Of a stretch of 64,000 nucleotides of DNA, positions 9,545 to 51,802 are shown piece after piece (the first letter of the stretch is position 1; each line of letters starts with the position of its first letter). Source of the stretch: an uncultured Acidobacteriota bacterium (GTDB lineage: Bacteria > Acidobacteriota > Polarisedimenticolia > Polarisedimenticolales > DASRJG01). The position numbers and the translations under genes were made by a program. The stretch lies in the NCBI GenBank assembly GCA_964647625.1, contig CAZYHZ010000009.1, positions 16,056-80,055 on the forward strand, given 5' to 3'. The notes under the pieces were generated by a model, which worked only from the letters and a program-made list of their open reading frames with translations, was not told where the DNA came from and did not search any database.

Positions 9545-11833
9545 CTAGAAGTTGAACCCGAGGCCGATCCAGTAGCTCCGGGTCGCGGCGGGGAAGAACT
9601 CGGAATAGAACTGGGTGTACGCCGCATCGAGCGGGTACGAATATCCGAACTGCGTGACCTTCGCGTCGAGCAGGTTGTCGATGCGGGCGCGGATCGTCAG
9701 CGAGCCTTTCGCCTTGCGCGCGTAGCCGGACAGATCGATCACCGCCTGTGCGCCGACGAGCGTGAAAGGATCGACCTTCTTGCTCACGTAATCGGCCGCT
9801 TCGCGGTTCTCCGGCGTCTTGCGCTCGTTCTGGGAGTTGTCCGTGTAGATCGTGCCCACGTGGCGGCCGTAGAGCTCGGCGCGAACGATGCCGAAGGTGC
9901 GCGCGACCGACAGCCGTGCGGTGAGATCCGGGAACAGCGCGATGCGGTTTCCCGAATAGTCGATCGCGATCGTGCCGCCGGCTCCGTCCGACGACAGGAG
10001 CGTGGCGTCATCGAGGACGTCGTGGCTGTAGGCGAGGTAGCCCGCGATGTCGACGTCCCCGGGGATCCTTCCTGCGCCCTCGAATTCGATCCCCTGGTGC
10101 CTCGAGCGCCCCGCGTTGGTCGTGAGCGGCACGCCGTCGCTGTTGAGCCCCCCCGCATACACCAGCTCGTCGCGGAACTGCATCCAGTAGAGGTTCATCT
10201 TCAGCCGCGTCGCACCCTTCCTGTAACCCGCCCCGGCCTCGACGCTGGTCAGCCGCTCGGGCTTCGCGAACGGGTCCGAGTAGTGCTGGGTCGCGGGATC
10301 GATGGTTGCGAAGGAGTCCGCCGGGTTGGCCGTCGTGTCTTCGGGATCCCAGACGTTCGCGAATGGGGGCTCGCTCTCGGTCTTCGCGACGAGCGCGTAG
10401 GTGTTCCAGCTGTCGGTGACGTTCCAATTCACGCCGAGGCGCGGCGTCACGAAGGAATAGTCGGCATTCCACGACGCGCCGCGCACCTTGTCCTCGCTCA
10501 TCGCGAACCTGTGGCGCGTGGCTTGGAGCTCGACGTCGAGCACCGCGTTCGGCGCGAAGCGCCACGCCTCGCGCGCGAACACGTTGATCGTGTCCTTCTT
10601 GTTCGTGTAGTCGTAGAGGCCGAGCGGCGCGCCGACGGGGGTCGTCGACGCGCACGTCGGATCCGACGGATCGGAGCAGATCGCTCCGCTGGTCACCGTG
10701 CCCTCGTGCTGCCCTCGATGGAACAGGAGCTCCATGCCGCCGCTCAGCTCCCCGTGAGGATGGGCCCACGCGATCCGTGGAATCCATCCGATCTGGTGGT
10801 TGTCCAGCGAGCGCTTCAGCCATGCGTCATTGATCGTCTCTTCCGGATAGGCCGGCGTCGGCGGCGCGCTCCCCAACGGATCGTACGCGTAGCTGTCCGC
10901 GTGCTGCCGGAAATAGCCGTTTCCGAGGATGGCGTAGACGGTGTTCTTGAGCGTCACGCCCGGGGCGATCCTCCGGTCGTTCATCACCTGGAGCTGAGGC
11001 TGGAAGAAGTTGTCCGTCTCGCCGGGAAGAAGCGAGTTTTGCCTCCGCAGCACGGGGTCGTTGATGTCCGGGTACGGGACGCCGTAATACGAAAGCTGCG
11101 TTTGCTCGGGGCCGCCGAACAGGAGGATCCGCCAGATCGAGTCGTCGTCGAACCGCTCGAAGGCGACCTGCGCGAACGTCTGGCGGGACCACGAGGGCTC
11201 GCGATATCCGTCGCTCTGAACGTGGGCGGCACGCGCCGCCCACGCCCAGTGGCTCGTTCCGATCGGGCCGCCGTAGCGGAGGGAGACGCGGCTCGTCCCG
11301 AACGACCCGGCGCCGAGCTCGAGCTCGCCTCCGGCGGTGGTCGAGAGCCCGGCACTCTCGAGGTTCACGACGCCCCCGACCGAGGGGGAGCCGTAGAGGG
11401 AGGTGCCGGGGCCGCGCTGGATCTGGACCAAGCCTAGGCCCGCGGCGAAGTCGCCCAGGTCGATCGTGTACACCTCGTGCGATTCGGGCGTGTTGAGCGG
11501 AACGCCGTTGACGTTGACCGCGATCCGGCTCTGCTCGAAGCCTCGGATCCGCAGATAGCTGTAGCCGTATCCGTTTCCGGCGTCGCTGTAGGAATACGCG
11601 TTCATCGTGTCCCCGAGCAGCGTCGACAGATCCTGTCCGACGTGAAGGTTTTCGATCGCCTGCGCGTCGAGGTCCGAAAACGACGCGGGGTCCTGCCTCT
11701 CCTTCGCGGCGTCGGAGGAGACGACGATCGATTCTTCAGCCCCGGTGGGGACCGGCGGCTCGTCCACGGCGAAGGCACGCAGCCCGGATCCGGCGATCAA
11801 GCCCAACACCACCCACAATCGCTTCGACGCCAT
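9545..11833 (-). CDS. TonB-dependent receptor, probably for thiamine
   Basis: Signal peptide, plug motifs (IRGF, VNGVPLN, IQRGPGTSLYG) and C-terminal aromatic end (GLGFNF). Confidence 0.9.
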   Translation of the reverse strand: MASKRLWVVLGLIAGSGLRAFAVDEPPVPTGAEESIVVSSDAAKERQDPASFSDLDAQAIENLHVGQDLSTLLGDTMNAYSYSDAGNGYGYSYLRIRGFEQSRIAVNVNGVPLNTPESHEVYTIDLGDFAAGLGLVQIQRGPGTSLYGSPSVGGVVNLESAGLSTTAGGELELGAGSFGTSRVSLRYGGPIGTSHWAWAARAAHVQSDGYREPSWSRQTFAQVAFERFDDDSIWRILLFGGPEQTQLSYYGVPYPDINDPVLRRQNSLLPGETDNFFQPQLQVMNDRRIAPGVTLKNTVYAILGNGYFRQHADSYAYDPLGSAPPTPAYPEETINDAWLKRSLDNHQIGWIPRIAWAHPHGELSGGMELLFHRGQHEGTVTSGAICSDPSDPTCASTTPVGAPLGLYDYTNKKDTINVFAREAWRFAPNAVLDVELQATRHRFAMSEDKVRGASWNADYSFVTPRLGVNWNVTDSWNTYALVAKTESEPPFANVWDPEDTTANPADSFATIDPATQHYSDPFAKPERLTSVEAGAGYRKGATRLKMNLYWMQFRDELVYAGGLNSDGVPLTTNAGRSRHQGIEFEGAGRIPGDVDIAGYLAYSHDVLDDATLLSSDGAGGTIAIDYSGNRIALFPDLTARLSVARTFGIVRAELYGRHVGTIYTDNSQNERKTPENREAADYVSKKVDPFTLVGAQAVIDLSGYARKAKGSLTIRARIDNLLDAKVTQFGYSYPLDAAYTQFYSEFFPAATRSYWIGLGFNF

Positions 11834-11904
11834 GCAACCTCCCCTCTGGGAATGCCGGCGACGGGTGGGTGGACGGATGGACGGAAGGAGCTTCGTACAT
11901 CGTC

Positions 11905-11986
11905 CCGTTTCCCTACGCTGGCATTACCCAGTTCAGGTTCCAGGGTTTGATCTCAGCCCGGCGTTTCCGCCGGACACCCCTAACGG
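11905..11986 (-). promoter_or_regulatory. TPP (thi-box) riboswitch
   Basis: Minus strand reads CCGTTAGGGGTGTCC...GGGCTGAGATCAAACCCTGGAACCTGAACTGGGTAATGCCAGCGTAGGGAAACGG, with the CTGAGA, AACCTGA and TAATGCC..CGTAGG elements and a closing P1 helix. Confidence 0.92.
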
Positions 11987-11997
11987 TGACGAGAAGC

Positions 11998-12114: not shown

Positions 12115-12189
12115 GGCGGCGTAGCCAAGTGGTAAGGCAACGGTCTGCAAAACCGTCATTCACCGGTTCAAATCCGGTCGCCGCCTCCA
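12115..12189 (+). tRNA. tRNA-Cys(GCA)
   Basis: Acceptor stem GGCGGCG/CGCCGCC, anticodon arm ACGGT-CTGCAAA-ACCGT, T loop TTCAAAT, encoded CCA. Confidence 0.95.
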
Positions 12190-20090: not shown

Positions 20091-21998
20091 ATGAACGTTT
20101 CGTTCACCGACCGCTTCACGACAGACGATGCCGTCAACATCTACGGCCTCGACGGGTGGAGCAACGGCTACTTCGCCATCGGCGAGGACGGGCACCTGCT
20201 CGTCACCCCGACCCGCGAGCCCGCGCGAGCGATCGACGTCTACCGCGTGGTCGAAGATCTCGCCAAGCGCGGTATCAAGACGCCGGCGCTCCTCCGGTTC
20301 CCGCAGCTTCTCGAGGGGCAGGTCAACGAGCTGTCGCAGAGCTTCGCCAACGCGATCCGCGAGTACAACTACCGCGAGCGGTACCTTCCGGTGTTTCCGA
20401 TCAAGGTCAACCAGCAGCGCGTCGTCGTCGAAGGGCTCGTGCGCGCCGGCTGGAGCGCAGGCCTCGGGCTCGAAGCCGGCAGCCGGCCGGAGCTACTGGC
20501 CGCGATCGCCCTCGACCTGTCGCCGGACGCCCTCGTCATCTGTAATGGGTTCAAAGACTCCGCGTACCTTCGCACCGCGTCGATGGCGTGCCGGCTCGGC
20601 AAGCAAGTGGTCGTCGTCATCGAGAAGCCGTTCGAGGTGGATCAGATCCTCGAGATGGCGGCATCCGAGCCGGTTCTCTTCAAGATCGGCTTCCGCATCC
20701 GCCTCCAGGCCAAGGGCTCCGGGATGTGGGAGAAATCGAGCGGCTTCACGTCGAAGTTCGGCCTGACGACGCTTCAGCTCCTGCGCGGGCTCGAGAAGCT
20801 GACCGACTCCGGCCTGCGCTCCCAGCTCGCCCTGCTTCATTTCCACATCGGCAGCCAGATCACCGAGATCCGCAAGGTGAAGGCCGCCGTCCGGGAGGCC
20901 GCGCGAATCTACGCGAAGGTCCGAAAGCTCGGCGCCGACGTGTCGTATCTCGACGTCGGCGGGGGCTTGGGCATCGACTACGACGGCTCCAAGACCTCTT
21001 CCGACGCGTCGGTGAACTACACGGTCCAGGAGTACGCCAACGACGTCGTGTTCGGTATCCAGGAAGTGTGCGACGAAGAGCACGTGCCCCCGCCGCGGAT
21101 CGTCAGCGAGTCCGGGCGCATGCTCGTCGCCTACCACGCGATGCTGATCACGGACGTGCGGGCGGCGGTGTCCGGCCAGGAGTCCGATCCGCCGGCCCTC
21201 ACCGGGCGGGAAGCGCAGATCGTCCAGGACCTCGCCGAGACCGCGAAGAAGATCTCGGTCAAGAACTACCGCGAGTTCTACCACGATGCGATCGAGTACC
21301 GCGATCAGATGTACTCCCTGTTCAACCTCGGGATGCTCGGGCTCGAAGAGCGCGGGAAGGGCGAGATGTTCTTCCGCGAGGTCGCGATGAAGGCGGTGCG
21401 TTACTCGAAATCCGCGAAGTTCGTCGCCGACGAGTTCCAGGAGCTCGAGACGAAGCTCCACGACAAGTACATCTGCAACTTCTCGGTCTTCCAGTCGGTC
21501 CCCGATCACTGGGCGCTCGACCAGCTCTTCCCGATCATCCCGGTGCACCGGCTCAACGAGATCCCCACGCGCAAGGCGACGCTCGCCGACATCACCTGCG
21601 ACTCCGACGGAGAGGTCGAGAAGTTCGTCGATCTCAAGGACATCAAGGACGCGCTCGAGATCCACGATCTCAAGGACGGCGAGCCCTACTACCTGGCCTT
21701 CGCTCTCGTCGGCGCCTACCAGGACACGATGGGGGACATGCACAACCTCTTCGGGCGGGTGCACGAGGCCGAGGTGATCCTCGGTCCGAAGGGGGTCCCG
21801 GTGGTCAGCGACGTCAGGCGCGGCGAGCCGGCGCGGGAGACCCTCGCCTGCTTCGGCTACGACGCCACGGATCTGCTCGAAGCCGTCAAGGCGCAGGTCC
21901 GCGAGCGCGCCAATCGAGGCGAGCTGTCGTCCGATGAAGCGGCCGCGTTCCTCGACAGCTACACCGCAAGCCTCGCTCAATACACCTACCTCGATTGA
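20091..21998 (+). CDS. speA: Biosynthetic arginine decarboxylase
   Basis: FPIKVNQ, LEAGSRPEL, HFHIGSQ, DVGGGLG, ESGR, TCDSDG and GAYQ motifs. Confidence 0.95.
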   Translation: MNVSFTDRFTTDDAVNIYGLDGWSNGYFAIGEDGHLLVTPTREPARAIDVYRVVEDLAKRGIKTPALLRFPQLLEGQVNELSQSFANAIREYNYRERYLPVFPIKVNQQRVVVEGLVRAGWSAGLGLEAGSRPELLAAIALDLSPDALVICNGFKDSAYLRTASMACRLGKQVVVVIEKPFEVDQILEMAASEPVLFKIGFRIRLQAKGSGMWEKSSGFTSKFGLTTLQLLRGLEKLTDSGLRSQLALLHFHIGSQITEIRKVKAAVREAARIYAKVRKLGADVSYLDVGGGLGIDYDGSKTSSDASVNYTVQEYANDVVFGIQEVCDEEHVPPPRIVSESGRMLVAYHAMLITDVRAAVSGQESDPPALTGREAQIVQDLAETAKKISVKNYREFYHDAIEYRDQMYSLFNLGMLGLEERGKGEMFFREVAMKAVRYSKSAKFVADEFQELETKLHDKYICNFSVFQSVPDHWALDQLFPIIPVHRLNEIPTRKATLADITCDSDGEVEKFVDLKDIKDALEIHDLKDGEPYYLAFALVGAYQDTMGDMHNLFGRVHEAEVILGPKGVPVVSDVRRGEPARETLACFGYDATDLLEAVKAQVRERANRGELSSDEAAAFLDSYTASLAQYTYLD

Positions 21999-39411: not shown

Positions 39412-39981
39412 TCAATCCGGAAAGCGTTCCGCGTCGAAAATCGATTCGACCGGGATGCTCCATCCCGGCAGCACGTCATCGCCTTCGAGCGTGTCGTCCG
39501 GGCCGAGGACCCGCGGCGCCAGGAGCGTCCGGTACGTCGTGACGCGCCGCCGCTCGGGATCGACGACCCACACGAGCCTGCACCCGGCCGCGAGGTAATC
39601 GGCGACCTTCGTGCGAATCTGATAAGGCCGGTTGGAAGGGGAAAAGATCTCGATCGCAAGATCCGGCGGCCCGTCGATGAAGCGACGGTAGTCGATGCCG
39701 GCGAGCCGCTCTCGCACGACGAACGAGATATCCGGCCCTCGAACCGTGTCCGGATCGCGCGCCAGGACGAAACCGGTCTCGCCGAATACTGCGCCGAGGC
39801 CACGAGGGACGACGAAGTCCTCGAGGAGTCGTTCCAGCTTCCTGCGGACCTGGTCGTGCCACGGAGAGGGAAGCGGCTCCGAGACGAGCCATCCTGCCTC
39901 CAGCTCGTGCCGCTTTTCGTCGTCGGGAAGCACCGCCAGCTCCAATGCGGTCAGCCGCCGACCCTGTTCGTGTCGTTCCAC
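39412..39981 (-). CDS. Uma2 family PD-(D/E)xK endonuclease
   Basis: RHELEAG, PDTVRGPDISF, PDLAIEIFSPS, YLAAG..LVWVVDP and LPGWS motifs; GTG start inferred. Confidence 0.88.
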   Translation of the reverse strand: MERHEQGRRLTALELAVLPDDEKRHELEAGWLVSEPLPSPWHDQVRRKLERLLEDFVVPRGLGAVFGETGFVLARDPDTVRGPDISFVVRERLAGIDYRRFIDGPPDLAIEIFSPSNRPYQIRTKVADYLAAGCRLVWVVDPERRRVTTYRTLLAPRVLGPDDTLEGDDVLPGWSIPVESIFDAERFPD

Positions 39982-40225
39982 GCACGTACGATACGGCGGC
40001 CCACTGGACGCGTCCAGCCGTCGCGACGGTTCCCCGTTGTCGCAATGCAACCCGCTACCGCACGAGCAACGGAACCGTCGATGGGGCCTGGGTCCTCTGA
40101 CATGCGAGGTTCGCCTCAGGCCACCGCGGTGACGGGGTGGTACAAAACGGAAGAGACCAAATCGATCAATGTTTGCGTGGGTCTCCGGAGCCGAAAGCCG
40201 TCCCAGATTTGCGGGGCCGAGGGCG

Positions 40226-40253
40226 GCGGGTTCGATTCCCGCCGCCTCCACCA
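40226..40253 (+). repeat. ssrA: tmRNA-like 3' fragment, att scar copy 1
   Basis: GCGGGTTCGATTCCCGCCGCCTCCACCA gives a T arm, an acceptor strand with U70, A73 and CCA; no matching 5' half upstream. Confidence 0.8.
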
Positions 40254-40486
40254 CACAACTCTTTCTCCTCGCGTCGCTTGCGGCGGGCACGCGTCCGCGT
40301 TGTGCTTCTATCGTGCTCCGCAGTCGGCGCCATGGTTCCCGGCTACCGCGGGAGGCGCGATACGCGCACGACTAATCCAACAAGGGTTCTCGGAAGCGCC
40401 AGGGATCCGAATTAGGGGTGCACAGAGCCCGGCTTGTTCCGATTGCACGCTCGGGCTGAGTAGTTGGAGTGCCGCATTTTCCAATT

Positions 40487-40975
40487 TCATGACGTGCGCT
40501 TCGGATTTGTCGGCAGATGTCTATTGAGAACCAACTTTCCGACAAACGTGATGCCATTCTGATCGAGCTGGAGACGTGCTTTCTCGGTATTGGCGAAATG
40601 GACCCTCCCGGATGCGACCCACAGCCATGCCGCGATGCTTCTGCCCGGTTTCAGATGTTTGCGCAAATGGATTAGGGCGGACCTTCGCTTCGCGATCACC
40701 GTAGAGATCTCATCCTTCTTTGCCGAATGCGGTTCGAGGCCGATCACGGAACGGCTCGGTCCGTGACCGAGCAGGTAGTCCCATCGGTTCTCGTCCGGAT
40801 GCGCCTCACGAAGCGAAGTGTCCAGATTGAGGCTGTCGGCGAAGTCGGATCGGACGCTCTCGTCGATTAGCGCTCGGTGACCGCCTTCCATGGCCATCAG
40901 CCCGTTCATAACGGCTCCGAATAGACCTGATCCATCCACGAGCGCGGAGCGAATTGGCGTGGCCCGGCGCGTCAT
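40487..40975 (-). CDS. Uncharacterised 162 aa protein coupled to the ATPase
   Basis: ATGA overlap with the ATPase stop. LD...RWDY..G...LEPH...K pattern suggests a nuclease-like fold (inference). Confidence 0.75.
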   Translation of the reverse strand: MTRRATPIRSALVDGSGLFGAVMNGLMAMEGGHRALIDESVRSDFADSLNLDTSLREAHPDENRWDYLLGHGPSRSVIGLEPHSAKKDEISTVIAKRRSALIHLRKHLKPGRSIAAWLWVASGRVHFANTEKARLQLDQNGITFVGKLVLNRHLPTNPKRTS

Positions 40976-42117
40976 TCGCCGTGCTCATTCACAGCCGCGC
41001 GAACCGCCTCCCCGAAGCGCGAACTGAAGCCTGTAAGGCCTCCCCAGGCCGCCTCGTTCTCGTCGTCCGATCCTGGGTCTAGGTTTGAGATGTTTTTCGA
41101 CCGAACTCTTCCGTCGCTGTCAAACTTGAGCAGGTGAACGCTGTAGCTCTTGTGAAGCGCGGCTTCGGCTACCTTTTTCATCGACTGTGTTTGTGTTACG
41201 TCGAATCCCTGACACACAAGTTGCCACCGCGCGTTATGTTCCTTGAGTCGTCGCAGCATCCAGATCGCCGTAAGCACATGTGCCGAGTGCGTAGAGAGGA
41301 CCACGCGATAACCGCGCCATAGCAGATCCAGCACGAGCAGGAGGAAAACAGTGAGCGCTTGTGGGTGCAGCCCCATTTCCGGCTCTTCGACGATCACCCA
41401 CTCGATCTCTGGCTGCTTGCGCTTCTTGGTTCTCGGTAGCAGGTGGTAAAGGCCGAGCAACAGGGGTGTAAACTCGCGCTGCCCAGTGGCCCAGGTCATG
41501 AACGGAAGTCCGGCTTTGTCGTGCGTCAGCTTGAGTCGTTTGGCATGTTGTGGATCCAGTTCGAGCGCAATCGATCCCCCATGGAAAACAGCCGAGTCGA
41601 TCAGCTTTCGGTACTCCTGCTTGAGGAGGCGAGGGACGGGGAAGAGCTGATCGCCCCCACGGGCACTGAAGCGGTCGAAGAGGTTTTGGCTGAAGATGCG
41701 AGCGACGACGGGCGTGTCCGACGTTAGTTTCTGAAACGGGGCCGCCCAGCCATCACTAATGAGCATCGAGCGGTGAGCCGGGATGAAGAAGGCTCGCTCC
41801 TTGCCGTTCCCGAGGCGGCTGATGCTCTTGGGTTCGATTTTCGCCCCATCAAGGAGGATCTCAGAGTCGCTTCGCCATGCAGTCCCCATGCCGACGCCGA
41901 AGATGAGGTCGATGAGGACTCCGGGTTCGGCGCGCTGGCCGGCTTCTCGTAGGGCCGAGACGATCTGTTTCCCGTCCATTGCGGTCTTCAGCCACTGAAG
42001 GGCGAGGCTCTTTCCGGTGCCTTGCGCACCCACAATGACAGTCAGGTCTCCGAACTCGAGCTCGGCATCCCCGATCTGCCCGAAGTTGCGAATCGAGAGC
42101 TTCGTGTTCCTCGTCAT
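40972..42117 (-). CDS. ABC-type ATPase (AAA_15/AAA_21-like)
   Basis: IRNFGQI, Walker A GAQGTGKS, IPAHR, signature-like ATGQ, Walker B VIVEEPEMGLHP and H-loop STHS. Confidence 0.9.
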   Translation of the reverse strand: MTRNTKLSIRNFGQIGDAELEFGDLTVIVGAQGTGKSLALQWLKTAMDGKQIVSALREAGQRAEPGVLIDLIFGVGMGTAWRSDSEILLDGAKIEPKSISRLGNGKERAFFIPAHRSMLISDGWAAPFQKLTSDTPVVARIFSQNLFDRFSARGGDQLFPVPRLLKQEYRKLIDSAVFHGGSIALELDPQHAKRLKLTHDKAGLPFMTWATGQREFTPLLLGLYHLLPRTKKRKQPEIEWVIVEEPEMGLHPQALTVFLLLVLDLLWRGYRVVLSTHSAHVLTAIWMLRRLKEHNARWQLVCQGFDVTQTQSMKKVAEAALHKSYSVHLLKFDSDGRVRSKNISNLDPGSDDENEAAWGGLTGFSSRFGEAVRAAVNEHGE

Positions 42118-42540
42118 ACCGCACCTCCACGGATCACATCGAGGTGGTTTCGCAAGAGCGCTTGGATTGGTCTTGTGCCGTCTCAGCCGTGCCCCACGGG
42201 CCGATCCGGTGAGCTTCCGAATTGCGAAGTATACCCCCCAATGTCCATTGGGCGAGAACACACTCCTGGCGCAAGTGAGCCAAGACAATACCTGACACCG
42301 CCGACGGCCGGAACGAGGAAGTCGATGCCGCGAATTGATGGAGTGAAGGATCCTTGGGGTGCGTCCCCGAGTCTTTGTCGAGCGTGGCTCGTGACACCCG
42401 CGTGGTCATCGTGACATTCCGCGTCGCGTGGCGAGCGCGGATCCGCGCCTCCCGCACAGCAACGGTAGGCTTGGATATGTAAAATGAGCGAATGGGATCT
42501 GGTTTCGCCGATCTCGCGCCGCCGCTCCGGTTCGCAGCCA

Positions 42541-45500
42541 ATGAGGGCTACTGAGATTTCTGCGGCCGCGCCCAAATTCCCCGACGCTTCGCACGCGCTG
42601 CATGGGTTTCGCTACCAGCTGCTGCAAACGCTCGGCGCGTGGCTGAACCTGCGGCCGAACGAGGAGCTTTGGATCGAAGTGTCCGAGGATTACGCGGTTT
42701 GCTCAGCGCACCAGTACAACGCTGTGCAGGTCAAGGGCTCACGCGCCGCGTCGGGGCCAACGCCGTACAGCTTGCAATCGAGTGATGTGCGTGCTGCGCT
42801 GCGCCGTTTCTGGACGCGGGCGGAATCTTCATCGCGAGAGCGCCTTACGTTTCTGGCCAATGGCGGCGTGGCGGTCGAACGGGACCATCCTTTTCCTAGG
42901 GGCGGCGGTGGGCTCGACTACTGGACGGCTGCGGCGCGCGGCGCGGACACCGCGCCGTTGCGCGCGGCGTTGTTGGCGTTGTTCGATGGCGAACCTCTCG
43001 GCGTCTGGCTCGCGCAGCAGCCGAGCGATGACGAATTGCGCGCACGGCTCCTGAGGCGCGTGACCTGGGCGCTTTGCGCTGCGAGCACCGACGATCTTTC
43101 CGCGCAGCTGCTCGACCAGATCGGCGCCGTCTACATCGAGCGCGGTTTGCCGGTGACGGCGGCGTCGGCCGGTTGGCATGCGCTGTGTGACCAGGTCTTT
43201 GAGGTGGCATGTCGGTCTGATCCCGCGACGCGACGCTTGACCTCGGTGGATTTGCACCGCGCAATCGAAGACACCCTCGCCGCGCTCAACATCGCAAAGA
43301 GGATGGGCGCTGCCGCGGGTGATGCCGCGGCCTATGTCCAGAGCGTCCTTGTGGGCGAACTCGCCGAAGTGCTGCCCGCGACAACCGCGCGCGCCCAGAC
43401 GATCGCCGCCATCCAATCAACCGTTGGCGCTGAACCGTTAGTGTGGCTGCATGGCGGCCACGGCGTCGGAAAGTCAACGTTGGCGCACCTTCTGGCACGA
43501 CGCTACGGCGGTCGCTGGTTGACCTTGGATCTGCGGCTTGCTCAGGCCGATCGCGGCGGCGCGCTTGCCGCCTGGCGCGAGCTGATGCGCGCCATCACTT
43601 CCAAGGGAATGCCGGACGGTATCGTGCTCGATGATTTCGCCGCCGCCGCCGTTGTTGCGTTGGGCGGCCGTCTGGCCGCACTGACTCAACAAATGGCGAG
43701 CAGGGGCGGGCGCGTAGTCGTCACGTCTCCACAACCGGCTTCACCAGCGCGGTTGGCGGCGCTTGGCGCGACACCGAACGCAAACGTTTCAGCGCCGTAC
43801 TTCACCGACACCGACATCCAAGATCTGATCAGTCGTACACCGTCACCGGAGTCCGCGCAAATCGAGGCCTGGCGCTTGTTCATCCGCATGGCCACGGGCG
43901 GCGGTCACCCGCTGCTGGTGGCGACGAAGGTCGCCAGCCTGCGCGCTCGCGGTTGGCCCGCGAGCGGACTGGCCGAAGACATCGGCAAGACCAGTGAGGC
44001 CATCCAGATCACGCGTGACGAAGCGCGTCGGGCGCTGCTCCGCGAACTCGCCGCGCTCGACCAAGCGCTCTCGCTCGATGTTGGTGCCCTCCTCCGCCGC
44101 ATCGGCGTGGTGTTCGATCGCGTCGATACGGGCCTTGTATCGGTTCTCGCAAAACTGCCGCCTGCCATAGCCAGGGCGTCGGACGCGCTTGCCGTGCTGC
44201 GCGGCAGTTGGCTCGAAGCGTTGCCCGACGGCGACTTGCGCCTGTCGCCCGTCATCTCCGACATCAGTACCGACGTGGCGGCGGAAGATATCCAACGCTG
44301 GTGCCGCGCCGCCGCGGAATACTGGTTGCGTAAGCGGGTGCTCAACGAACGAACCCTGCCGCTCTGTTTCTGGAACGCCTTTATCGGTCATCACGACTGG
44401 GTGCTGATGAAGCTGTGCGAGACGCTGCAGAGCCTCGATCACGAGATCCTGCGTGGAGCGGTCGCTCTTCTTTCGCCGATGACCGCGTTGCGGACAGACG
44501 TGTCGCTCTACGAGCACAACCCCATTGTCGGCGTCAATTTGCGACTGCTCCAGTTCCAGGTGGCGGCAGCGGTCGAATCCGACGGCTCGGGCGCCGACAT
44601 CGCCAAGCGTCTGCTGGTGGAGCTGAGTCAGATCGAAGATCGCGACGTTTACGCGCTGATGACGGCCGTTTCCGCTTCCAAGGTGCTGATGACGCAGACC
44701 GTCCACCTCGCGCCAGAGGACATTGTCGAATGTGCGTTGCGGCTACGCCAGGTCACGCCGCGCGTACAGGAATTGGGCGGCCCAACGCTGAAGCTCCCCC
44801 ACTGTGACATCGCGCGACAGTTCGGGGAAGACGTGGACCCTTCGGACTTTCTATTCGCCAGTTCCCTCTCCAAAAGTCAGGATTCGGCGGGCTTCCTGCG
44901 TACGATTGAAGCGCTCGACGCGATCGGGGCGGATGAGCGTCGCCGTTTCCTCGCCGCCTCCGGCGCGATCTTTGATGGGCTCTCGCTTTTCGTGAACTCC
45001 GGATGGTCCTGTGACCAGCTCGAGGATCGCGAGATGGTGGCCGCGCTCCGATGTTATGAGTGCGCTGCCACGATCGCGGAGCGGTGGGAAGTGGTGGACC
45101 TGAATGTCGAACTGGCGGTAGCACAATCCGTGATCCTGGACGAAGCTCTCAAAGACATGGATCGCGCGCTCGCTATCGTGGAAGCCGCCGTCGCTCGTTT
45201 TGGCCCGCTGCCCGCCCTGGTCAGGCAGAAGGCGAAGGTCCTCGGCCACAACGACCGCGACGCGGAGGCCGCCGATTTGATGATGAGCATCGAGGACACG
45301 GTCGGCGGCAACTCCAAGCTCGAACGCGGTCTTTCATTGCGCGATGGTGGCACGTCGGCCGCGCGGAGCGGGCGCTTTGACATCGCGGCGCGCCTGTTCG
45401 CCAAGGCCATTCAAGCCATCGACGAAAGTGGTGGACACGCGGCGCTCGCTGCGGGCTTGCGCGTCGATCTTGCGATGGCACTCTGGGATTCAAAAGATCG

Positions 45501-46593
45501 CGCAGCGGCGCTGCTCAGACTCGCCGACGCCCTCGATATTGTCGGCACGCTTGATGCTTCCGCATCCCGTCAACACGAGCGCGCGCACCAGTTCGCGCGC
45601 GCTGCGTGCGGACTGTTCTTGAGTGACGTGGGTTCTTTTCCGCTCAACTCCCGGCCAAACATCGCCTATGGCGGCGCCTCGGTTCTGTCGCTCTCGCGTG
45701 AGGAACTCGTCAACGTTGAACTGAAGCCGCTCGCGGACAATTGGCGCATCCTGGCGCTGGTCGAAGCCGAGTGCGATCTCGATGTCGGCATCGATGCGCG
45801 TTCGCGCGCCGCGCAGACAGGGCCGGCGCTTGCGTCCATCGAATCGATGATCGCGTTCGCGCGATACGGCGGCGGACTTATGAGCGATGACCTGGAGGCC
45901 GCGCTTGGCCTGGGCATTCCAGCGACGTCGGCTGCGCGAATGCGCCGCTTGGCTATCGACAAAAACGATGAGCCTGTCCGCGTCGACTTCGACAACGTGA
46001 CGGCGACGCCGCTGGCCGACTTACTCGCCGATCCGGTGTGGCGCGACGCAGTGATGCGGCTTCCGGTTGACATTCTTGTCGCCCGTCGCTTGCAGGGGAA
46101 ATGGTCGCCGGATCTGCCCGATCGCTTGCGCGCGGCCTGCGGAAAAGTGTTCGGCAATGAAGCGGGGATGGACGCCGTGCTAAAGGCGGCCACGGGGCGC
46201 TATGCCATCGGACCAACCGAGCCCCTCAATCATTCGATAGCGGCGGCCGCCTCGCGCACCGACGAGGAACTCGCGATCGATCCATCGATCCGATTCAACC
46301 GCGACATGCTGTTCGTGGGCCATTTGTCTCAAAGCATAGCGCGGCATGCGCTTGAAACGCTGATCGTGCCGGTGCTGCAGCGCGGATGGGCGGACGTGCT
46401 CGCCAACCAACGGTTCCGCTTGCGCGCGCCGACGCGTTGCTGTCCCGTCATCGAAGACGCTATTGCTGCCGTGCCGAAACATGGGCTGCCGGCTGCGGCG
46501 CGGCTGGTTCTAGCGGCGGCAACGGCGGTTGGAGAAAGCCTGCCCGAGAGTTGGGAAACAATGCTCGTTGCCCTCGCGCGGGGATCAATCTGA
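42541..46593 (+). CDS. Cap4-like nuclease / STAND NTPase / helical-repeat protein (Avs-like)
   Basis: GFRYQ..E..EDY..QVK, then GGHGVGKST, IVLDD, VVVTS and GGHPLLV, then a long Ala/Leu-rich helical C-terminus. Start may be 42484. Confidence 0.8.
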   Translation: MRATEISAAAPKFPDASHALHGFRYQLLQTLGAWLNLRPNEELWIEVSEDYAVCSAHQYNAVQVKGSRAASGPTPYSLQSSDVRAALRRFWTRAESSSRERLTFLANGGVAVERDHPFPRGGGGLDYWTAAARGADTAPLRAALLALFDGEPLGVWLAQQPSDDELRARLLRRVTWALCAASTDDLSAQLLDQIGAVYIERGLPVTAASAGWHALCDQVFEVACRSDPATRRLTSVDLHRAIEDTLAALNIAKRMGAAAGDAAAYVQSVLVGELAEVLPATTARAQTIAAIQSTVGAEPLVWLHGGHGVGKSTLAHLLARRYGGRWLTLDLRLAQADRGGALAAWRELMRAITSKGMPDGIVLDDFAAAAVVALGGRLAALTQQMASRGGRVVVTSPQPASPARLAALGATPNANVSAPYFTDTDIQDLISRTPSPESAQIEAWRLFIRMATGGGHPLLVATKVASLRARGWPASGLAEDIGKTSEAIQITRDEARRALLRELAALDQALSLDVGALLRRIGVVFDRVDTGLVSVLAKLPPAIARASDALAVLRGSWLEALPDGDLRLSPVISDISTDVAAEDIQRWCRAAAEYWLRKRVLNERTLPLCFWNAFIGHHDWVLMKLCETLQSLDHEILRGAVALLSPMTALRTDVSLYEHNPIVGVNLRLLQFQVAAAVESDGSGADIAKRLLVELSQIEDRDVYALMTAVSASKVLMTQTVHLAPEDIVECALRLRQVTPRVQELGGPTLKLPHCDIARQFGEDVDPSDFLFASSLSKSQDSAGFLRTIEALDAIGADERRRFLAASGAIFDGLSLFVNSGWSCDQLEDREMVAALRCYECAATIAERWEVVDLNVELAVAQSVILDEALKDMDRALAIVEAAVARFGPLPALVRQKAKVLGHNDRDAEAADLMMSIEDTVGGNSKLERGLSLRDGGTSAARSGRFDIAARLFAKAIQAIDESGGHAALAAGLRVDLAMALWDSKDRAAALLRLADALDIVGTLDASASRQHERAHQFARAACGLFLSDVGSFPLNSRPNIAYGGASVLSLSREELVNVELKPLADNWRILALVEAECDLDVGIDARSRAAQTGPALASIESMIAFARYGGGLMSDDLEAALGLGIPATSAARMRRLAIDKNDEPVRVDFDNVTATPLADLLADPVWRDAVMRLPVDILVARRLQGKWSPDLPDRLRAACGKVFGNEAGMDAVLKAATGRYAIGPTEPLNHSIAAAASRTDEELAIDPSIRFNRDMLFVGHLSQSIARHALETLIVPVLQRGWADVLANQRFRLRAPTRCCPVIEDAIAAVPKHGLPAAARLVLAAATAVGESLPESWETMLVALARGSI

Positions 46594-46806: not shown

Positions 46807-48117
46807 ATGGCAGATTGCTTCGCGTTTCTCGACACGAACACTCTTCTCCACTACCGTCGATTCTCGGAAGTCGACTGGCCTTCCGAGCTCTCCAGCCCGA
46901 CGGTTACCATCATCATCTTGCCCACCGTCATTGACGAGCTCGACGCGCTCAAATCGGAGCACCAGCTTAAGCACATCCGCACGCGTGCGAAGAGCCTATG
47001 TCAGCATGTCTTGGAACTGACCGTTGACGGAGACCCGGTGGCGCTCAAGTCGAATGTGCGCCTGCAACTGACACCTGATTCGGCCTCCCCGACAAACCAA
47101 GAAGTCGAATCAGGTGGTGATGACCGCATTCTGTCGGACGTCCAGGAGCACGCCCGCGCGCATCCGGGCGCTCGGCACGTCCTCGTCACTGCCGACACAG
47201 GGCTCACTCTACGAGCCCGACGACGCGCCCTGGAGGTCGTTTCACTTCGCGATGCCCTTCTTCTTCCGGACGAGAGGGACCTACTCGAACGACAAGTACA
47301 AACTCTTCGCGCGCAGCTCGCTGACCTCGAAAATAATCTCCCGAACCTCCATCTGGTCGTCGGGAACAACTCGGACCGGTTCAATTGTGAATTGGACCCC
47401 GACCTCGAACCTACGGCCGGTCTCATCGCGCAGCGAATGGCTGAAGTGCGGGCGAAGTACCCCAAGCTTAAGTCGAGCACCGAATTCGATGGGATAGCGC
47501 TCGACTCGCCGTTCGCCAAGGCGATTGCTGCATTGCAGGCGAATCCATTACACACCGTGCTACCGAAGGACGTCGATCAGTACAACACCGGTTTGGACTC
47601 GTTTTACGTCGATTACGAACGATACTTGCCTGCTCTAATCGAACATGAAAACAATGTGCGCCGGACGGCGCGATTGGAATTAACGCTGCGCAACGACGGC
47701 GGGGCTCCGGCCGAAGACGTCGACATCATGCTGCACCTCCCTGATGGTTTCGAGGTCTTCGATGCCGAGGAGCGGCCCGAGCCACCCCCGGCTCCGAAGC
47801 CGCCGATTCGCCCGAACTCCTTGGCCGAACGCTTCGGTGCTGCGGGGGGGATAGGACTTCGTATCCCTTCGCTAACACACCTAGGTCCACCCCCAAACGT
47901 ATCCGTTCCCACAATCAAGAAGACCAACAGTTACCGAGTTGATTTTCACGTTCGGAACCTCAAGCACGGATTCGCCGTTGCTCTCCGGCCACTCTTCTTG
48001 GCGTTCCCAACAGGCGGCGTCCGCTCGTTCGCGTTCGAATACGCGCTCGCACCTTCCAATCATCCGAAGCCGGCCTGCGGAAAGATCCACGCGCACTGTC
48101 GCCAGCGTTCAACTTAA
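46807..48117 (+). CDS. PIN-domain protein with coiled coil and unknown C-terminal domain
   Basis: FLDTN, VIDELD.LK, DDRIL and LVTAD.GL motifs. Confidence 0.8.
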   Translation: MADCFAFLDTNTLLHYRRFSEVDWPSELSSPTVTIIILPTVIDELDALKSEHQLKHIRTRAKSLCQHVLELTVDGDPVALKSNVRLQLTPDSASPTNQEVESGGDDRILSDVQEHARAHPGARHVLVTADTGLTLRARRRALEVVSLRDALLLPDERDLLERQVQTLRAQLADLENNLPNLHLVVGNNSDRFNCELDPDLEPTAGLIAQRMAEVRAKYPKLKSSTEFDGIALDSPFAKAIAALQANPLHTVLPKDVDQYNTGLDSFYVDYERYLPALIEHENNVRRTARLELTLRNDGGAPAEDVDIMLHLPDGFEVFDAEERPEPPPAPKPPIRPNSLAERFGAAGGIGLRIPSLTHLGPPPNVSVPTIKKTNSYRVDFHVRNLKHGFAVALRPLFLAFPTGGVRSFAFEYALAPSNHPKPACGKIHAHCRQRST

Positions 48118-48432: not shown

Positions 48433-48460
48433 GCGGGTTCGATTCCCGCCGCCTCCACCA
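48433..48460 (+). repeat. ssrA: tmRNA-like 3' fragment, att scar copy 2
   Basis: Identical to 40226-40253. Confidence 0.8.
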
Positions 48461-48677
48461 CAACAGCTTCGCATCCACCACTTTCGAGAAACGTACTCCC
48501 GGCGGCCCGGCGGCAGCCCACTTTCAACGTCGTTACCGATTACGACCGATACCGGCCATTCTCGGAGATTTCTTGGCGGGGAAATCGGGCGATCCAATTT
48601 CGAAGCGTTGACAGGCCTTGCTCCTGACGGTACACAGCCACCCGCACTTCGGGACCGAACAGGAGCGGGGCAAACGA

Positions 48678-51600
48678 ATGATCGTGACGAGTCGAATCGT
48701 GCGACTCATCGGTCTCACCGTGCTAACGGCGTTGGTCCCGCTGCTCCCGACACCCGCGAGCGCTCAGGCCGAGACCGTCATCGCTTCGGACAACTTCAAT
48801 CGCTCCAATGAGACTCCGTTCGCCAGTACGGGAAACTGGGGTCACGTCATTGCGGGTAACTACCAGGGCACTTCGAGTCTGGTCAGCAATCAAGTGCGAA
48901 GCGCTTCGCAAGAGGGGATCTATTACTGGAAGGGCGCGGGAACATTCGACCCCACGAAGCAGTTCGCGAGAGAGCGGGCCGTGCAAAAGGACGGCGAGCT
49001 CGGGCTCGTCCTCCTGGGTGGACCGGATCAAGCCCTCATGGTCAGCTGGGGTCCGCCCGGCGTCGGCAACACGCTTTACATCTATTGGTACGCGGGGGGT
49101 GCCGCTCAGTCCGTGCTGGCCACCGCGCCCTCGTCTTTGGCCAATGGAGACATCATCGAGGCCGCTCTCCAAGGCGGGTTCATCTACGCGAAGGTCAATG
49201 GAATCATCGTCGCCAAGGTCCCCAATACGACCACTCTGACGTCGGGGCGGCCCGGGTTCATCACGTATCTCGATCCGAATCTGCCGGCTCAGGTCTCCAT
49301 TCTCGACGACTGGTCCGCCGGCGCGCCGGCCGCGTACACGATCGGCGGAACGATCACGGAAAACGCCGCCGGGCTGAGCGGAGTCCTGGTGACCGCCAGT
49401 GACGGGCTCAGCGCGACGGCGACGACCAACGGATCCGGTGCCTACACGATCTCGGGGGTGCCGGCCGGCGCAACCTCCATCGTGCTGACGCCGACGCTGT
49501 CCGGTCACACGATGACGCCGACGTCGCGCGCGGTGGCCGGCCCGGTGAACGCGAACGTGACGGGTCAGAATTTCACGAGCACCCCCGTGACGGGTGTCAC
49601 GCTGACGATCAACACGAGCCACGGCACCGTCACACGGAATCCCGATCTGCCTTCGTATGCGTTCGGGACGAACGTCACGCTGACTCCGGTGCCCGACGCC
49701 GGGTACCAGTTCGCCGGATGGAGCGGCGACGTCCCGGTAGGGCACGAATCCGACAATCCGCTGGTCGTCACGATGGATCAGAACCGGACGATCACCGCCG
49801 GGTTCGTGTCGCCCGGTGTCGTCGCCTTCGATCACTTCGATCGAGCCGACGAGACCCCGCTCACCGTCGGAGGCAACTGGCAGAAGCCGTTCTCGGGAGG
49901 CTCCGCCAATCTCACGAGCAACCACGTCGCGGGCGCGTCGGGCGAAGCACTTTACTACTGGCAAGGCCTCGGCACGTTCGACAACACGCGACAGTACGCG
50001 CGGGCAAGAGTGGTGCAGACGGGCGGGCAGGCGGGTCTGTTGCTGCTCGGCGGTCCCAATCAAGCGATCGCCATCGCGTGGGGTGCCGGGCAGCTCTACA
50101 TCTACTGGTACTCCAACGGAAACTACCAAGCCGAGCTGGCGCGGCAAACTTCCACGCTTCAGGTCGGCGACGAGATCGAAGCCGTGCTCGAGCAAGGAAA
50201 GATCTTTGCGAAGATCAACGGCACCGTCATCAAGAACGTGGCGAATACGACGAGCCTGACCTCCGGTCGGCCGGGGTTTGAAACGTATCTGTCGGGCGGA
50301 GCCATCGACGACTGGGAAGCAGGGACACCGCAGGACTTTTCGATCGGTGGGACGATCACCGAGAATGGGAGTGGGCTGAGCGGCGTGTCGGTGACGGCGA
50401 CCGGCGGATACAGTGGAAACGTGACCACCGGCGTCGACGGCACGTACACGATTGCGGGAGTTCCGTCCGGCGTCACGTCGGTCCTCCTGACCCCCACGCT
50501 GACGGGACATACGATGAGCCCGGTCACGAGATCGGTGACAGGTCCTGCTCTGGGAAACGTCACGGGTCAAGACTTCGCAAGCACGCTGATCACGAACGTG
50601 GCGCTGACCACGACGGCAAACCACGGAACCGTGGCGAGGGATCCGGATCTGGCGGCGTATTCGTACGGCGCGACCGTCACGGTGACGCCGAACCCCGCTC
50701 CGGGTTACCACTTCACCCGCTGGGGTGGCGACGTTCCGCCGGGCGACGAGACGGACAACCCGCTGGTCGTGTCGATGACTCAGGACCGGTCGATCTCGGC
50801 GATCTTCGTATCGTCGGAGGTCCTGGCATCCGATTACTTCGAGCGCCCCGACGAAACGCCCATCGCCGTCACGGGTGACTGGCGGCAGACGTTCTCGGGC
50901 GTGACCGCCGATCTGACGAATCGCCGCGTGACGGGCGGCCCGGGTGACGCGGTGTACTACTGGCAGGGCGCCGGCGCCTTCAGCAACTCGAGGCAGTTCG
51001 CGCGTGCGCGCGTCGCCCAGGCCGGAGGGGAAGTGGGCCTCGTGTTGCTCGGCGGAGCCAACCAGGGGTTCGTACTGACGTGGGCCGGGGGCCAGCTTTA
51101 CTTCTATTGGTATCTGAACGGCACGCATCAAGGGGATCTCCTGATCCTTCCTTCGACGATCGCGACCGGCGACACGATCGAAGCGGTGCTCGATTCCGGG
51201 ACCATCTACGGAAAGGTCAATGGCGTCGACATCGGAAGCCTCGCGAATTCGACGAGCTTGTCGTCCGGGCTCCCGGGGTTCCAGCTGAGGCTCGCCGGTG
51301 GCGCCCTCGACGATTGGGAGGCCGGAACGCTTGCGGTGAGCTGCACGGGCGCACCCAACGGAACGCCCTGCAACGACGGCAACCCGTGCACGTTCAACGA
51401 CGCGTGCACGGGGGGAACGTGCGCGGGAACCCCTGGATCGGCTCCCACGGAGGTTCAAGGCGTCGTCCTCGACGGGCAAACTCCCACGGGCCTGGCTTGG
51501 GCGGCTGCAAGTGGAGCGGTCTATGACGTGGCCTCGGGGGCGCTCTCCGATCTACGCGTCGATGGAACGACGAGCGCAGCGTGCCTGTCGAACGACGGTA

Positions 51601-51749
51601 CGGCCGCCGGCTACGTCGAAAACCGCCCGGACCCGGCGCCGGGTGCCGGCTACTACTACATCGTCCGGGCGCAGAGCGCCTGCGGCTCCGGAACCTACGG
51701 ATTCGCCTCGACCGGTCAGGAGCGCGTGCCGACCGCCGCTTGCCCCTGA
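48678..51749 (+). CDS. Large secreted modular repeat protein
   Basis: Signal peptide; three copies of an (S/F)D.F.R..ETP...DDW.AG module; two carboxypeptidase-regulatory-like and two InlB-B-repeat-like modules; Cys-rich repeat and Cys-containing tail. Confidence 0.85.
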   Translation: MIVTSRIVRLIGLTVLTALVPLLPTPASAQAETVIASDNFNRSNETPFASTGNWGHVIAGNYQGTSSLVSNQVRSASQEGIYYWKGAGTFDPTKQFARERAVQKDGELGLVLLGGPDQALMVSWGPPGVGNTLYIYWYAGGAAQSVLATAPSSLANGDIIEAALQGGFIYAKVNGIIVAKVPNTTTLTSGRPGFITYLDPNLPAQVSILDDWSAGAPAAYTIGGTITENAAGLSGVLVTASDGLSATATTNGSGAYTISGVPAGATSIVLTPTLSGHTMTPTSRAVAGPVNANVTGQNFTSTPVTGVTLTINTSHGTVTRNPDLPSYAFGTNVTLTPVPDAGYQFAGWSGDVPVGHESDNPLVVTMDQNRTITAGFVSPGVVAFDHFDRADETPLTVGGNWQKPFSGGSANLTSNHVAGASGEALYYWQGLGTFDNTRQYARARVVQTGGQAGLLLLGGPNQAIAIAWGAGQLYIYWYSNGNYQAELARQTSTLQVGDEIEAVLEQGKIFAKINGTVIKNVANTTSLTSGRPGFETYLSGGAIDDWEAGTPQDFSIGGTITENGSGLSGVSVTATGGYSGNVTTGVDGTYTIAGVPSGVTSVLLTPTLTGHTMSPVTRSVTGPALGNVTGQDFASTLITNVALTTTANHGTVARDPDLAAYSYGATVTVTPNPAPGYHFTRWGGDVPPGDETDNPLVVSMTQDRSISAIFVSSEVLASDYFERPDETPIAVTGDWRQTFSGVTADLTNRRVTGGPGDAVYYWQGAGAFSNSRQFARARVAQAGGEVGLVLLGGANQGFVLTWAGGQLYFYWYLNGTHQGDLLILPSTIATGDTIEAVLDSGTIYGKVNGVDIGSLANSTSLSSGLPGFQLRLAGGALDDWEAGTLAVSCTGAPNGTPCNDGNPCTFNDACTGGTCAGTPGSAPTEVQGVVLDGQTPTGLAWAAASGAVYDVASGALSDLRVDGTTSAACLSNDGTAAGYVENRPDPAPGAGYYYIVRAQSACGSGTYGFASTGQERVPTAACP

Positions 51750-51774: not shown

Positions 51775-51802
51775 GCGGGTTCGATTCCCGCCGCGTCGAG
51801 CA
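51775..51802 (+). repeat. ssrA: Degenerate tmRNA-like 3' fragment, copy 3
   Basis: First 20 nt (GCGGGTTCGATTCCCGCCGC) are identical to copies 1 and 2, then GTCGAGCA replaces CTCCACCA. Confidence 0.65.

Follow-up and report, generated by a model that had tools for sequence, protein, structure and literature searches.

The Candidate Receptor Gene and Its Domains

The window analyzed here is a stretch of 64,000 nucleotides (nt) from contig CAZYHZ010000009.1 of an uncultured Acidobacteriota bacterium. The gene in question, at 42541..46593 on the forward (+) strand, encodes a protein of 1,350 amino acids (aa), referred to below as the receptor, with a predicted Cap4-type nuclease domain, a STAND NTPase module, and a TPR-like sensor. 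The gene was delimited by open reading frame (ORF) listing, translation, and comparison with homologs. The uninterrupted ORF found by listing and translation occupies 42484-46593 (+; 1,369 codons), and with the upstream ATG at 42484 as start the protein would be 19 aa longer. The start at 42541 (Met20) fits better than that at 42484, because the homologs are 1,335-1,346 aa long and, in the alignment, carry ~20 residues ahead of the GFRYQ motif. Long ORFs can appear by chance in GC-rich DNA; this one is a real gene rather than a chance ORF, since it has 66 homologs, mostly full length and with E-values from 0 to 3e-31, together with 1,203 profile-matched cluster representatives. A sequence-only reading of the window had proposed at this position an Avs-like receptor joining a Cap4/DUF4297-type endonuclease to a STAND NTPase and about 800 aa of helical repeats. 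Translation confirmed the ORF and every motif named there (GFRYQ, ED, QVK, Walker A, Walker B, and GGHPL), and all are conserved across the family.

The predicted effector is the N-terminal domain (aa 17-253; 42589..43299, +), a PD-(D/E)xK nuclease of the Cap4/DUF4297 type as judged by Pfam, PADLOC, a profile search of the PDB, an AlphaFold2 (AF2) model, and Foldseek. Pfam Cap4_nuclease matched aa 18-112 (E = 2.3e-3, under the curated cut-off). The PADLOC LmuA model matched the receptor with E = 2.4e-6 and 23 of 35 relatives with E-values down to 4.5e-16, and the PADLOC DUF4297 model matched 12 of the 35. When the family profile was searched against the PDB, it retrieved the DUF4297 protein of HerA-DUF4297 (8xav; E = 1.5e-6) with the GxxYQ, ED, and QxK motifs in alignment. 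The domain was modeled with a predicted local distance difference test score (pLDDT) of ~85-95, and Foldseek matched it to 9c1m and 9hr5. The profile matches thus agree with the nuclease type assigned from the letters of the sequence.

Three motifs lie in this domain. GFRYQ (42604..42618, +) starts the first helix of the domain and aligns with the G[YF]xYQ of DUF4297 (PDB 8xav and 8ziq); EVSED (42676..42690, +) supplies the acidic residues E46, E49, and D50 of the predicted PD-(D/E)xK site and aligns with IEDVD of DUF4297; and QVK (42727..42735, +), with Q63 and K65, is the (E/Q)xK half of the site and aligns with Q-C-K. Among 172 full-length members, conservation is 97% for E46, 94% for E49, 97% for D50, 95% for Q63, and 92% for K65; Y25 and Q26 are conserved in 87% and 91%, and E113 and W128 in 100%. 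At the domain level, the receptor therefore has what places a protein in the Cap4/DUF4297 PD-(D/E)xK superfamily, namely the GxxYQ helix, the D/E...(E/Q)xK motif, and a Cap4-like fold. It lacks what would identify a CBASS Cap4 effector, as there is no SAVED match in Pfam and no cyclase gene among the neighbors in the window.

The central region (aa 268-572; 43342..44256, +) is predicted from AF2 secondary structure, Foldseek, and weak Pfam matches (AAA_16 and NPHP3_N) to be a STAND nucleotide-binding oligomerization module (NOD) composed of a P-loop domain, a helical domain, and a winged helix. Its Walker A motif is GGHGVGKS (43453..43476, +; K311), and its Walker B motif is GIVLDD (43618..43635, +; D364 and D365), in the “DD” form typical of STAND proteins. 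GGGHPLL (43897..43917, +), which is the STAND helical domain's GxP motif, falls within model helix 457-469. In an alignment of 42 sequences, G310, K311, D364, G455, H456, P457, and L459 are invariant, and D365 is conserved in at least 90%.

The AF2 model of aa 1-660 (pLDDT 87.1; predicted template modeling score 0.83) comprises, in order, the nuclease, a disordered linker at 254-267, the P-loop domain, the GHP-bearing helical domain, and the winged helix, which carries a β-hairpin at 558-568. The top Foldseek match of this model in the PDB is terminase-bound SeAvs3 (8dgc_B; E = 3.7e-10), followed by NRC3, MalT, Apaf-1, NRC4, NRC2, a wheat resistosome, HerA-DUF4297, RPP1, Dark, Roq1, and LmuA. 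The STAND-type matches (Avs3, NRC2/3/4, MalT, Apaf-1, Dark, RPP1, and Roq1) have E-values from 3.7e-10 to 1e-4. AAA+ proteins enter the list at rank 14, and most of them lie below the STAND matches, with Dark and Roq1 among them. Because of this ranking, both the STAND and the nuclease assignments have structural support, as does the Avs layout that had been read from the motifs; the model is confident, and its matches include both domain types. A phmmer search of the NOD against PDB sequences gave no match.

The C-terminal region (aa 575-1350; 44263..46590, +) is an all-helical TPR-like solenoid by AF2, Foldseek, and a weak Pfam TPR_12 match at aa 938-1000, and it is the predicted sensor. The AF2 model of aa 540-1350 has a pLDDT of 87.9 and ~40 helices, so that the helical repeats anticipated from the sequence are confirmed at ~780 aa. 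The length of the solenoid itself, ~776 aa, is within what is expected of Avs proteins in the broad sense, in which the sensor has at least 400 aa and is usually TPR-like. The 50 best Foldseek matches of the sensor model in the PDB, with 8DGC included in the search, are generic TPR solenoids (SKI3, IFT-A, OGT, and APC/C) with TM-scores of at most 0.23 and contain no Avs sensor, and phmmer of the sensor against PDB sequences found no match. The earlier judgment that the sensor could not be assigned by eye thus holds for structure and sequence searches as well. Divergence is somewhat faster in the sensor half than in the N-terminal one, with 59-63% vs. 69-71% identity among the closest relatives and 18-22% vs. 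22-27% among the most distant.

Family Size, Distribution, and Probable Transfer

A profile of the NOD and sensor, applied to 1.84 billion proteins at E ≤ 1e-30, retrieved a family that, at 50% identity, comprises 1,203 clusters or more. The 150 best profile matches are nearly all 1,300-1,370 aa long, and their NOD match starts at residue 240-314, from which it follows that the size of the N-terminal module is constant among them. Named members belong mostly to the Alphaproteobacteria (Hyphomonadaceae, Rhodospirillales, Ensifer/Sinorhizobium, Devosia, Caulobacter, Hyphomicrobiaceae, and Roseiarcus), and the remaining named members include Beta- or Gammaproteobacteria. A genome scan with an alignment of 16 closer sequences contributed to this list. 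Distant members (23-32% identity) lie on plasmids of Agrobacterium, Rhizobium, Bradyrhizobium, Burkholderia, and Sphingopyxis. Family members are annotated only as hypothetical, AAA-family, or TPR proteins.

The arginine decarboxylase (SpeA) encoded at 20091-21998 (+) of the window is 78% identical to that of an Acidobacteriia metagenome-assembled genome (MAG), 71% to that of Polarisedimenticolaceae, and 69% to that of Acidobacteria bacterium Mor1. The closest homologs of the receptor, at 57-67% identity, are proteobacterial, and the closest named ones are alpha- or betaproteobacterial. Since the host is acidobacterial by SpeA and the closest named receptor homologs are proteobacterial, sequence comparison points to acquisition of the receptor gene, or of the island that carries it, by horizontal transfer between phyla. 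The closest named homolog, from Hyphomonadaceae MAGs (66-67% identity; locus L008, 8001-11952, and locus L013, 5873-9923), carries in two assemblies a frameshift near residue 1,100 that divides it into genes of ~1,082-1,090 aa and 254-387 aa, which may reflect a pseudogene or an assembly error common to both.

The Repeat-Bracketed Island

The receptor gene lies between two copies of a perfect 30-nt direct repeat, GCGGGTTCGATTCCCGCCGCCTCCACCACA, at 40226..40255 (+) and 48433..48462 (+), which are the putative left and right island boundaries; the repeat search expected 0 such pairs by chance. The 8.2-kb segment between them has a GC content of 0.623, compared with 0.673 and 0.687 in the flanks. 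Such a low-GC segment bracketed by repeats bears the hallmark of an integrated element. No integrase gene was found within the segment.

The repeat is similar to the 3′ end of a transfer-messenger RNA (tmRNA) or tRNA, with its T-arm, acceptor strand, and CCA end. The Rfam tmRNA model scored 33.1 and 22 bits at the two repeats, both under the gathering score of 47, and neither ARAGORN nor Rfam at its gathering threshold detected an intact tmRNA or tRNA there, leaving only the sub-threshold 3′-end matches. A permuted tmRNA was considered at the repeats and set aside as unconvincing, with 27 bits, an A3-U70 pair in the acceptor stem, and no tag reading frame. The predicted RNA fold of the 182 nt upstream is unremarkable (z = -2.1). 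Just upstream of the first repeat, GGGGCCGA might serve as the 5′ acceptor strand and form a G3-U70 pair, and the two together would resemble a tmRNA whose whole interior has been lost.

A degenerate third copy of the repeat, with 3 mismatches in 26 nt, lies at 51777-51802, so that the three copies bracket first the 8.2-kb low-GC segment of four genes and then a 3.3-kb segment of one gene. The latter gene, at 48618-51749 (+) between the second and third copies, encodes a 1,043-aa protein with three long internal repeats, Flg_new_2 and CarboxypepD_reg domains, and an N terminus that reads as hydrophobic and signal-peptide-like. A 918-codon antisense ORF that overlaps it (48723-51479) is probably an artefact of GC content. 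On the other side, a gene for a putative endonuclease of the Uma2 family (DUF820; 39412-40290, −) abuts the left repeat, and the listed Uma2 ORF's N-terminal portion, which overlaps the tmRNA-like sequence, is probably not translated. When metagenomes were searched with the flanking VIT-VWA protein for an unoccupied site, the sole result was one contig, of 2.5 kb, with a partial match of 100% identity. Elsewhere in the window, a TonB-dependent receptor gene (9545-11833, −) is immediately preceded by a TPP riboswitch (11893-11991, −; 66 bits, above threshold), a placement that suggests thiamine-regulated outer-membrane uptake, and a tRNA-Cys gene is present at 12115-12189.

Neighboring Genes and Homolog Contexts

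Four genes lie between the perfect repeats: PDC-M56B, PDC-M56A, the receptor gene, and a PIN_4 gene. PDC-M56B (40487-40975, −; PADLOC E = 1e-19) encodes 162 aa with no Pfam domain, and PDC-M56A (40972-42288, −, most likely start 42117; PADLOC E = 3e-115) encodes an AAA_15/AAA_21 ATPase. The PIN_4 gene (most likely 46807-48117, +), which the sequence-only reading had correctly recognized as a neighboring PIN gene, lies downstream, starts 213 nt past the receptor stop codon, and encodes 436 aa, with an N-terminal PIN_4 domain and a C-terminal region of ~290 aa to which no domain is assigned.

To sample the context of the gene elsewhere, nine independent homolog neighborhoods were read qualitatively. 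None of the nine has an adjacent PIN_4 or AAA_15 gene, and they have no neighboring gene in common. The PIN protein itself belongs to a rare family (16 matches); neither of two PIN homologs checked has a STAND gene nearby, one lying beside Mrr_cat and N6_N4 methyltransferase genes and the other by unrelated genes. Because the nine neighborhoods share no gene and the two PIN homologs checked stand without a STAND gene, the receptor gene is taken to be a solo gene and the PIN gene to be incidental. The PIN_4 gene was accordingly rejected as a partner, also in view of the 213-nt gap, and it may be an independent defense or toxin gene; its presence had earlier been read as a sign of a new Avs type, an argument that these contexts do not sustain. 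The PDC-M56 pair was likewise rejected as a partner, since it lies on the opposite strand and PADLOC defines it as a two-gene candidate of its own. A pair of genes of 448 and 196 aa, similarly placed at homolog locus L003, is not homologous to PDC-M56. In one sub-lineage only, a gene of ~280 aa lies directly upstream of the receptor homolog on the same strand (L010, 318-1181; L008, 7073-7900; and L013, 5044-5868). It is 75% identical between loci, has no Pfam domain, and occurs neither in the window nor at the other homolog loci.

Recurrent neighbors in the homolog loci are restriction-modification genes (type I and other), Mrr/HNH genes, a TerB-BrxD-DEAD cluster, and a gene for a TIR-WD40 protein, and the loci also hold integrases, resolvases, and MobA, with tRNA genes close by. 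Defense-type genes (restriction-modification, Mrr/HNH, TerB-BrxD-DEAD, TIR-WD40, or PDC-M56) lie near the receptor gene in ~6 of the 9 contexts, a small sample.

Proposed Function and Alternatives

The receptor has the domain order of a nuclease, a STAND NTPase, and a solenoid; its catalytic and nucleotide-binding residues are conserved; its fold is similar to those of known STAND and nuclease proteins; and it lies in mobile or defense-rich DNA with no conserved partner gene. We regard it as likely that the protein is a stand-alone pattern-recognition receptor of the Avs type, acquired on a small mobile defense island and acting by abortive infection in the manner of Avs3 and Avs7. From these features and from analogy we infer a defense activity, as well as what the trigger, the oligomeric state, and the substrate of the nuclease would be, as follows. 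In an uninfected cell, the protein would be a closed, ADP-bound monomer with an inactive Cap4-type nuclease domain, by analogy with SeAvs3 and SeAvs7. During infection, the TPR-like solenoid of ~780 residues would bind a macromolecule made by the phage, most likely a conserved phage protein. Binding would open the STAND module and lead to exchange of ADP for ATP and to oligomerization, probably into a tetramer, and oligomerization would unite the N-terminal PD-(D/E)xK domains into an active, non-specific double-stranded DNA (dsDNA) endonuclease. Phage and host DNA would then be destroyed and the infection aborted.

Several results weigh against this interpretation. The Pfam matches to Cap4_nuclease, AAA_16, and TPR_12 are all under their curated cut-offs. 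The Foldseek match to Avs3 has a TM-score of only 0.30 and a high root-mean-square deviation, and in the model it appears to reflect common domains rather than the same overall conformation. The arginine usually found at STAND sensor 1, after strand 4, is not evident in the sequence, where the motif reads VVVTSPQP. The Avs1-5 models of PADLOC-DB v2 match neither the receptor (E ≤ 1) nor any of 35 family members (E ≤ 0.1), the PADLOC Dsr1 models, which represent the Avs7-type sensor, match neither the receptor nor 34 relatives at E ≤ 0.1, and sequence searches of the PDB gave no match to any solved Avs. Family members carry annotation only, so that function is predicted from sequence and model, and the evidence from defense context is qualitative, drawn from about nine loci. 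Finally, 50,697 phage records contain no family member, which is neutral for a host defense gene but provides no link to prophages.

Among the alternatives, a STAND-nuclease receptor that responds to something other than a phage protein, such as nucleic acid, an alarm signal in the form of a nucleotide or small molecule, or a disturbed host factor, or that serves in competition between mobile elements, is improbable yet deserves some weight. The sensor matches no solved Avs sensor, the generic TPR solenoids that it does match include the RNA-binding IFIT5 (rank 37), and the gene is carried on integrative elements and plasmids. SeAvs7 is reported to incorporate the host factor EF-Tu, from which it follows that host proteins can take part in sensing (PMC13581612). 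However, in a systematic screen, the triggers of 14 STAND families were all phage proteins, sensed for the most part by TPR-like sensors (PMC13581612), and neither Pfam nor the AF2 model reveals a nucleic acid- or nucleotide-binding module in the C-terminal region of the receptor.

That the receptor is instead one component of a multi-gene system, with the PIN_4 protein downstream or the PDC-M56 ATPase pair upstream, seems very unlikely. All four genes lie between the 30-bp repeats, PIN_4 follows closely on the same strand, and the ~280-aa gene of L010 and L008/L013 demonstrates that local partners can occur, but this gene is missing from the window and the other loci, 0 of the 9 neighborhoods has an adjacent PIN_4 or AAA_15 gene, and the gap, the two PIN homologs, and the separate PDC-M56 candidate on the other strand all speak for a single gene. 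We give scarcely any credence to a non-immune STAND protein, for example a MalT-like signaling hub or regulator whose N-terminal domain lacks nuclease activity. The structural matches do include MalT and AAA+ proteins, and the curated Pfam thresholds are not reached; against this, Pfam finds no DNA-binding output domain, the PD-(D/E)xK residues are 92-97% conserved in the 172 members, restriction-modification and other defense genes adjoin, and the family is patchily distributed on mobile elements with evidence of inter-phylum transfer.

A further possibility, which we hold to be somewhat doubtful, is that the family forms an Avs type of its own, with a solenoid that recognizes a trigger outside the known list. 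That list comprises the terminase, portal, major capsid protein, portal adaptor, tail nozzle, connector, tail terminator, tail tube, tail assembly chaperone, tape measure, DNA polymerase, RecA-type ATPase, and single-strand annealing protein. Such a new trigger could be a protein restricted to the phages of Alphaproteobacteria or of soil bacteria; it could also be a signal that is not a protein or that comes from the host. The proposal of a new Avs type with a new trigger, made from the sequence alone, fared unevenly: the comparison with Avs1-5 profiles that it called for gave no PADLOC match and no close ortholog of a characterized Avs was found, and the Dsr1 models are also unmatched, but its novelty was overstated, as ~198 defense-associated STAND clades are already catalogued (PMC13581612).

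What emerges is a large and apparently unnamed receptor family that would not surprise a STAND specialist in 2026. If active, it would be a further family of bacterial NLR-like receptors, one that counts 1,200 or more clusters at 50% identity, is found chiefly in Proteobacteria of soil, rhizobial, and environmental kinds rather than in enterics, and has spread also to the Acidobacteriota. Identification of its trigger would widen the map of phage components monitored by bacterial immunity, for hosts whose phages are poorly studied, and the current picture of the Avs mechanism would stay unchanged. The uniform single-gene architecture makes the family easy to test and a sensible candidate for a trigger screen.

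Comparison with Known Systems

In the broad sense used for Avs proteins (PMC13581612), the receptor has each of the expected parts: a STAND-type NTPase core, a fused effector domain of a defense type, and a C-terminal sensor. A 2026 catalogue recognizes 589 STAND clades, ~198 of them associated with defense, and 684 structural clusters of sensors, and Cap4 was among the effector proteins used to gather its seed sequences (PMC13581612). Given its size, the receptor family is probably listed there; as far as could be checked, it is not among the families with a known trigger (PMC13581612).

The receptor's N-terminal domain has its closest sequence relatives in the nuclease of HerA-DUF4297 (8XAV, 8ZIQ, and 9C1M) and in Lamassu LmuA (9HR5), with which it shares the GxxYQ, ED, and QxK motifs. 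In those systems a second protein, the HerA helicase or the LmuB SMC protein, controls the nuclease, whereas the nuclease of the receptor forms one chain with a STAND NTPase and a sensor, and no LmuB or HerA gene is present in the window neighborhood or in the nine homolog contexts. With Apaf-1, the plant NRC, RPP1, and Roq1 resistosomes, and MalT, the receptor has in common the NOD fold and a predicted ADP/ATP switch with ligand-induced oligomerization, at a sequence identity to these eukaryotic and bacterial STAND switches of only 10-16%. Their effectors are CARD, CC, TIR, or HTH domains rather than a nuclease, and their sensors are built of WD40 or LRR repeats rather than a TPR-like solenoid.

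SeAvs3 of Salmonella enterica (PDB 8DGC; AVAST type 3) is likewise a single-protein effector with a Cap4-type nuclease, a STAND NTPase, and a helical-repeat sensor in the same order. It is larger, at ~2,000 aa vs. 1,350 aa; its PDB chain gave no sequence match to the receptor, and neither phmmer nor the 50 best Foldseek matches of the sensor model retrieved its terminase-binding sensor. The window contains no small partner gene of the Avs3b-like kind. SeAvs7 also has the layout of Cap4 nuclease, STAND NTPase, and TPR sensor, is encoded by a single gene, has spread horizontally, and senses the major capsid protein (PMC13581612). It measures 1,523 aa with a TPR region at 561-1523 (PMC13581612), compared with 1,350 aa and a sensor at ~575-1350 in the receptor. 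The Avs7 sensor, which is bilobed, binds the major capsid protein, and is homologous to that of Dsr1, has no counterpart here by the indirect test of the PADLOC Dsr1 models, none of which matches the receptor family, and no Avs7 chain is among the solved-structure matches listed, the Avs7 sequence and structure themselves not being part of the comparison. Avs7 proteins carry at least 20 different effector domains, whereas the 150 best relatives of the receptor have a uniform N-terminal length of ~270-310 aa. On binding their targets, the Cap4-STAND-TPR proteins SeAvs3 and SeAvs7 form tetramers that cut dsDNA (PMC13581612). Judged against the Avs1-5 and Dsr1 models, membership of the receptor in a named family is not established; in its predicted mode of working, it resembles Avs3 and Avs7.

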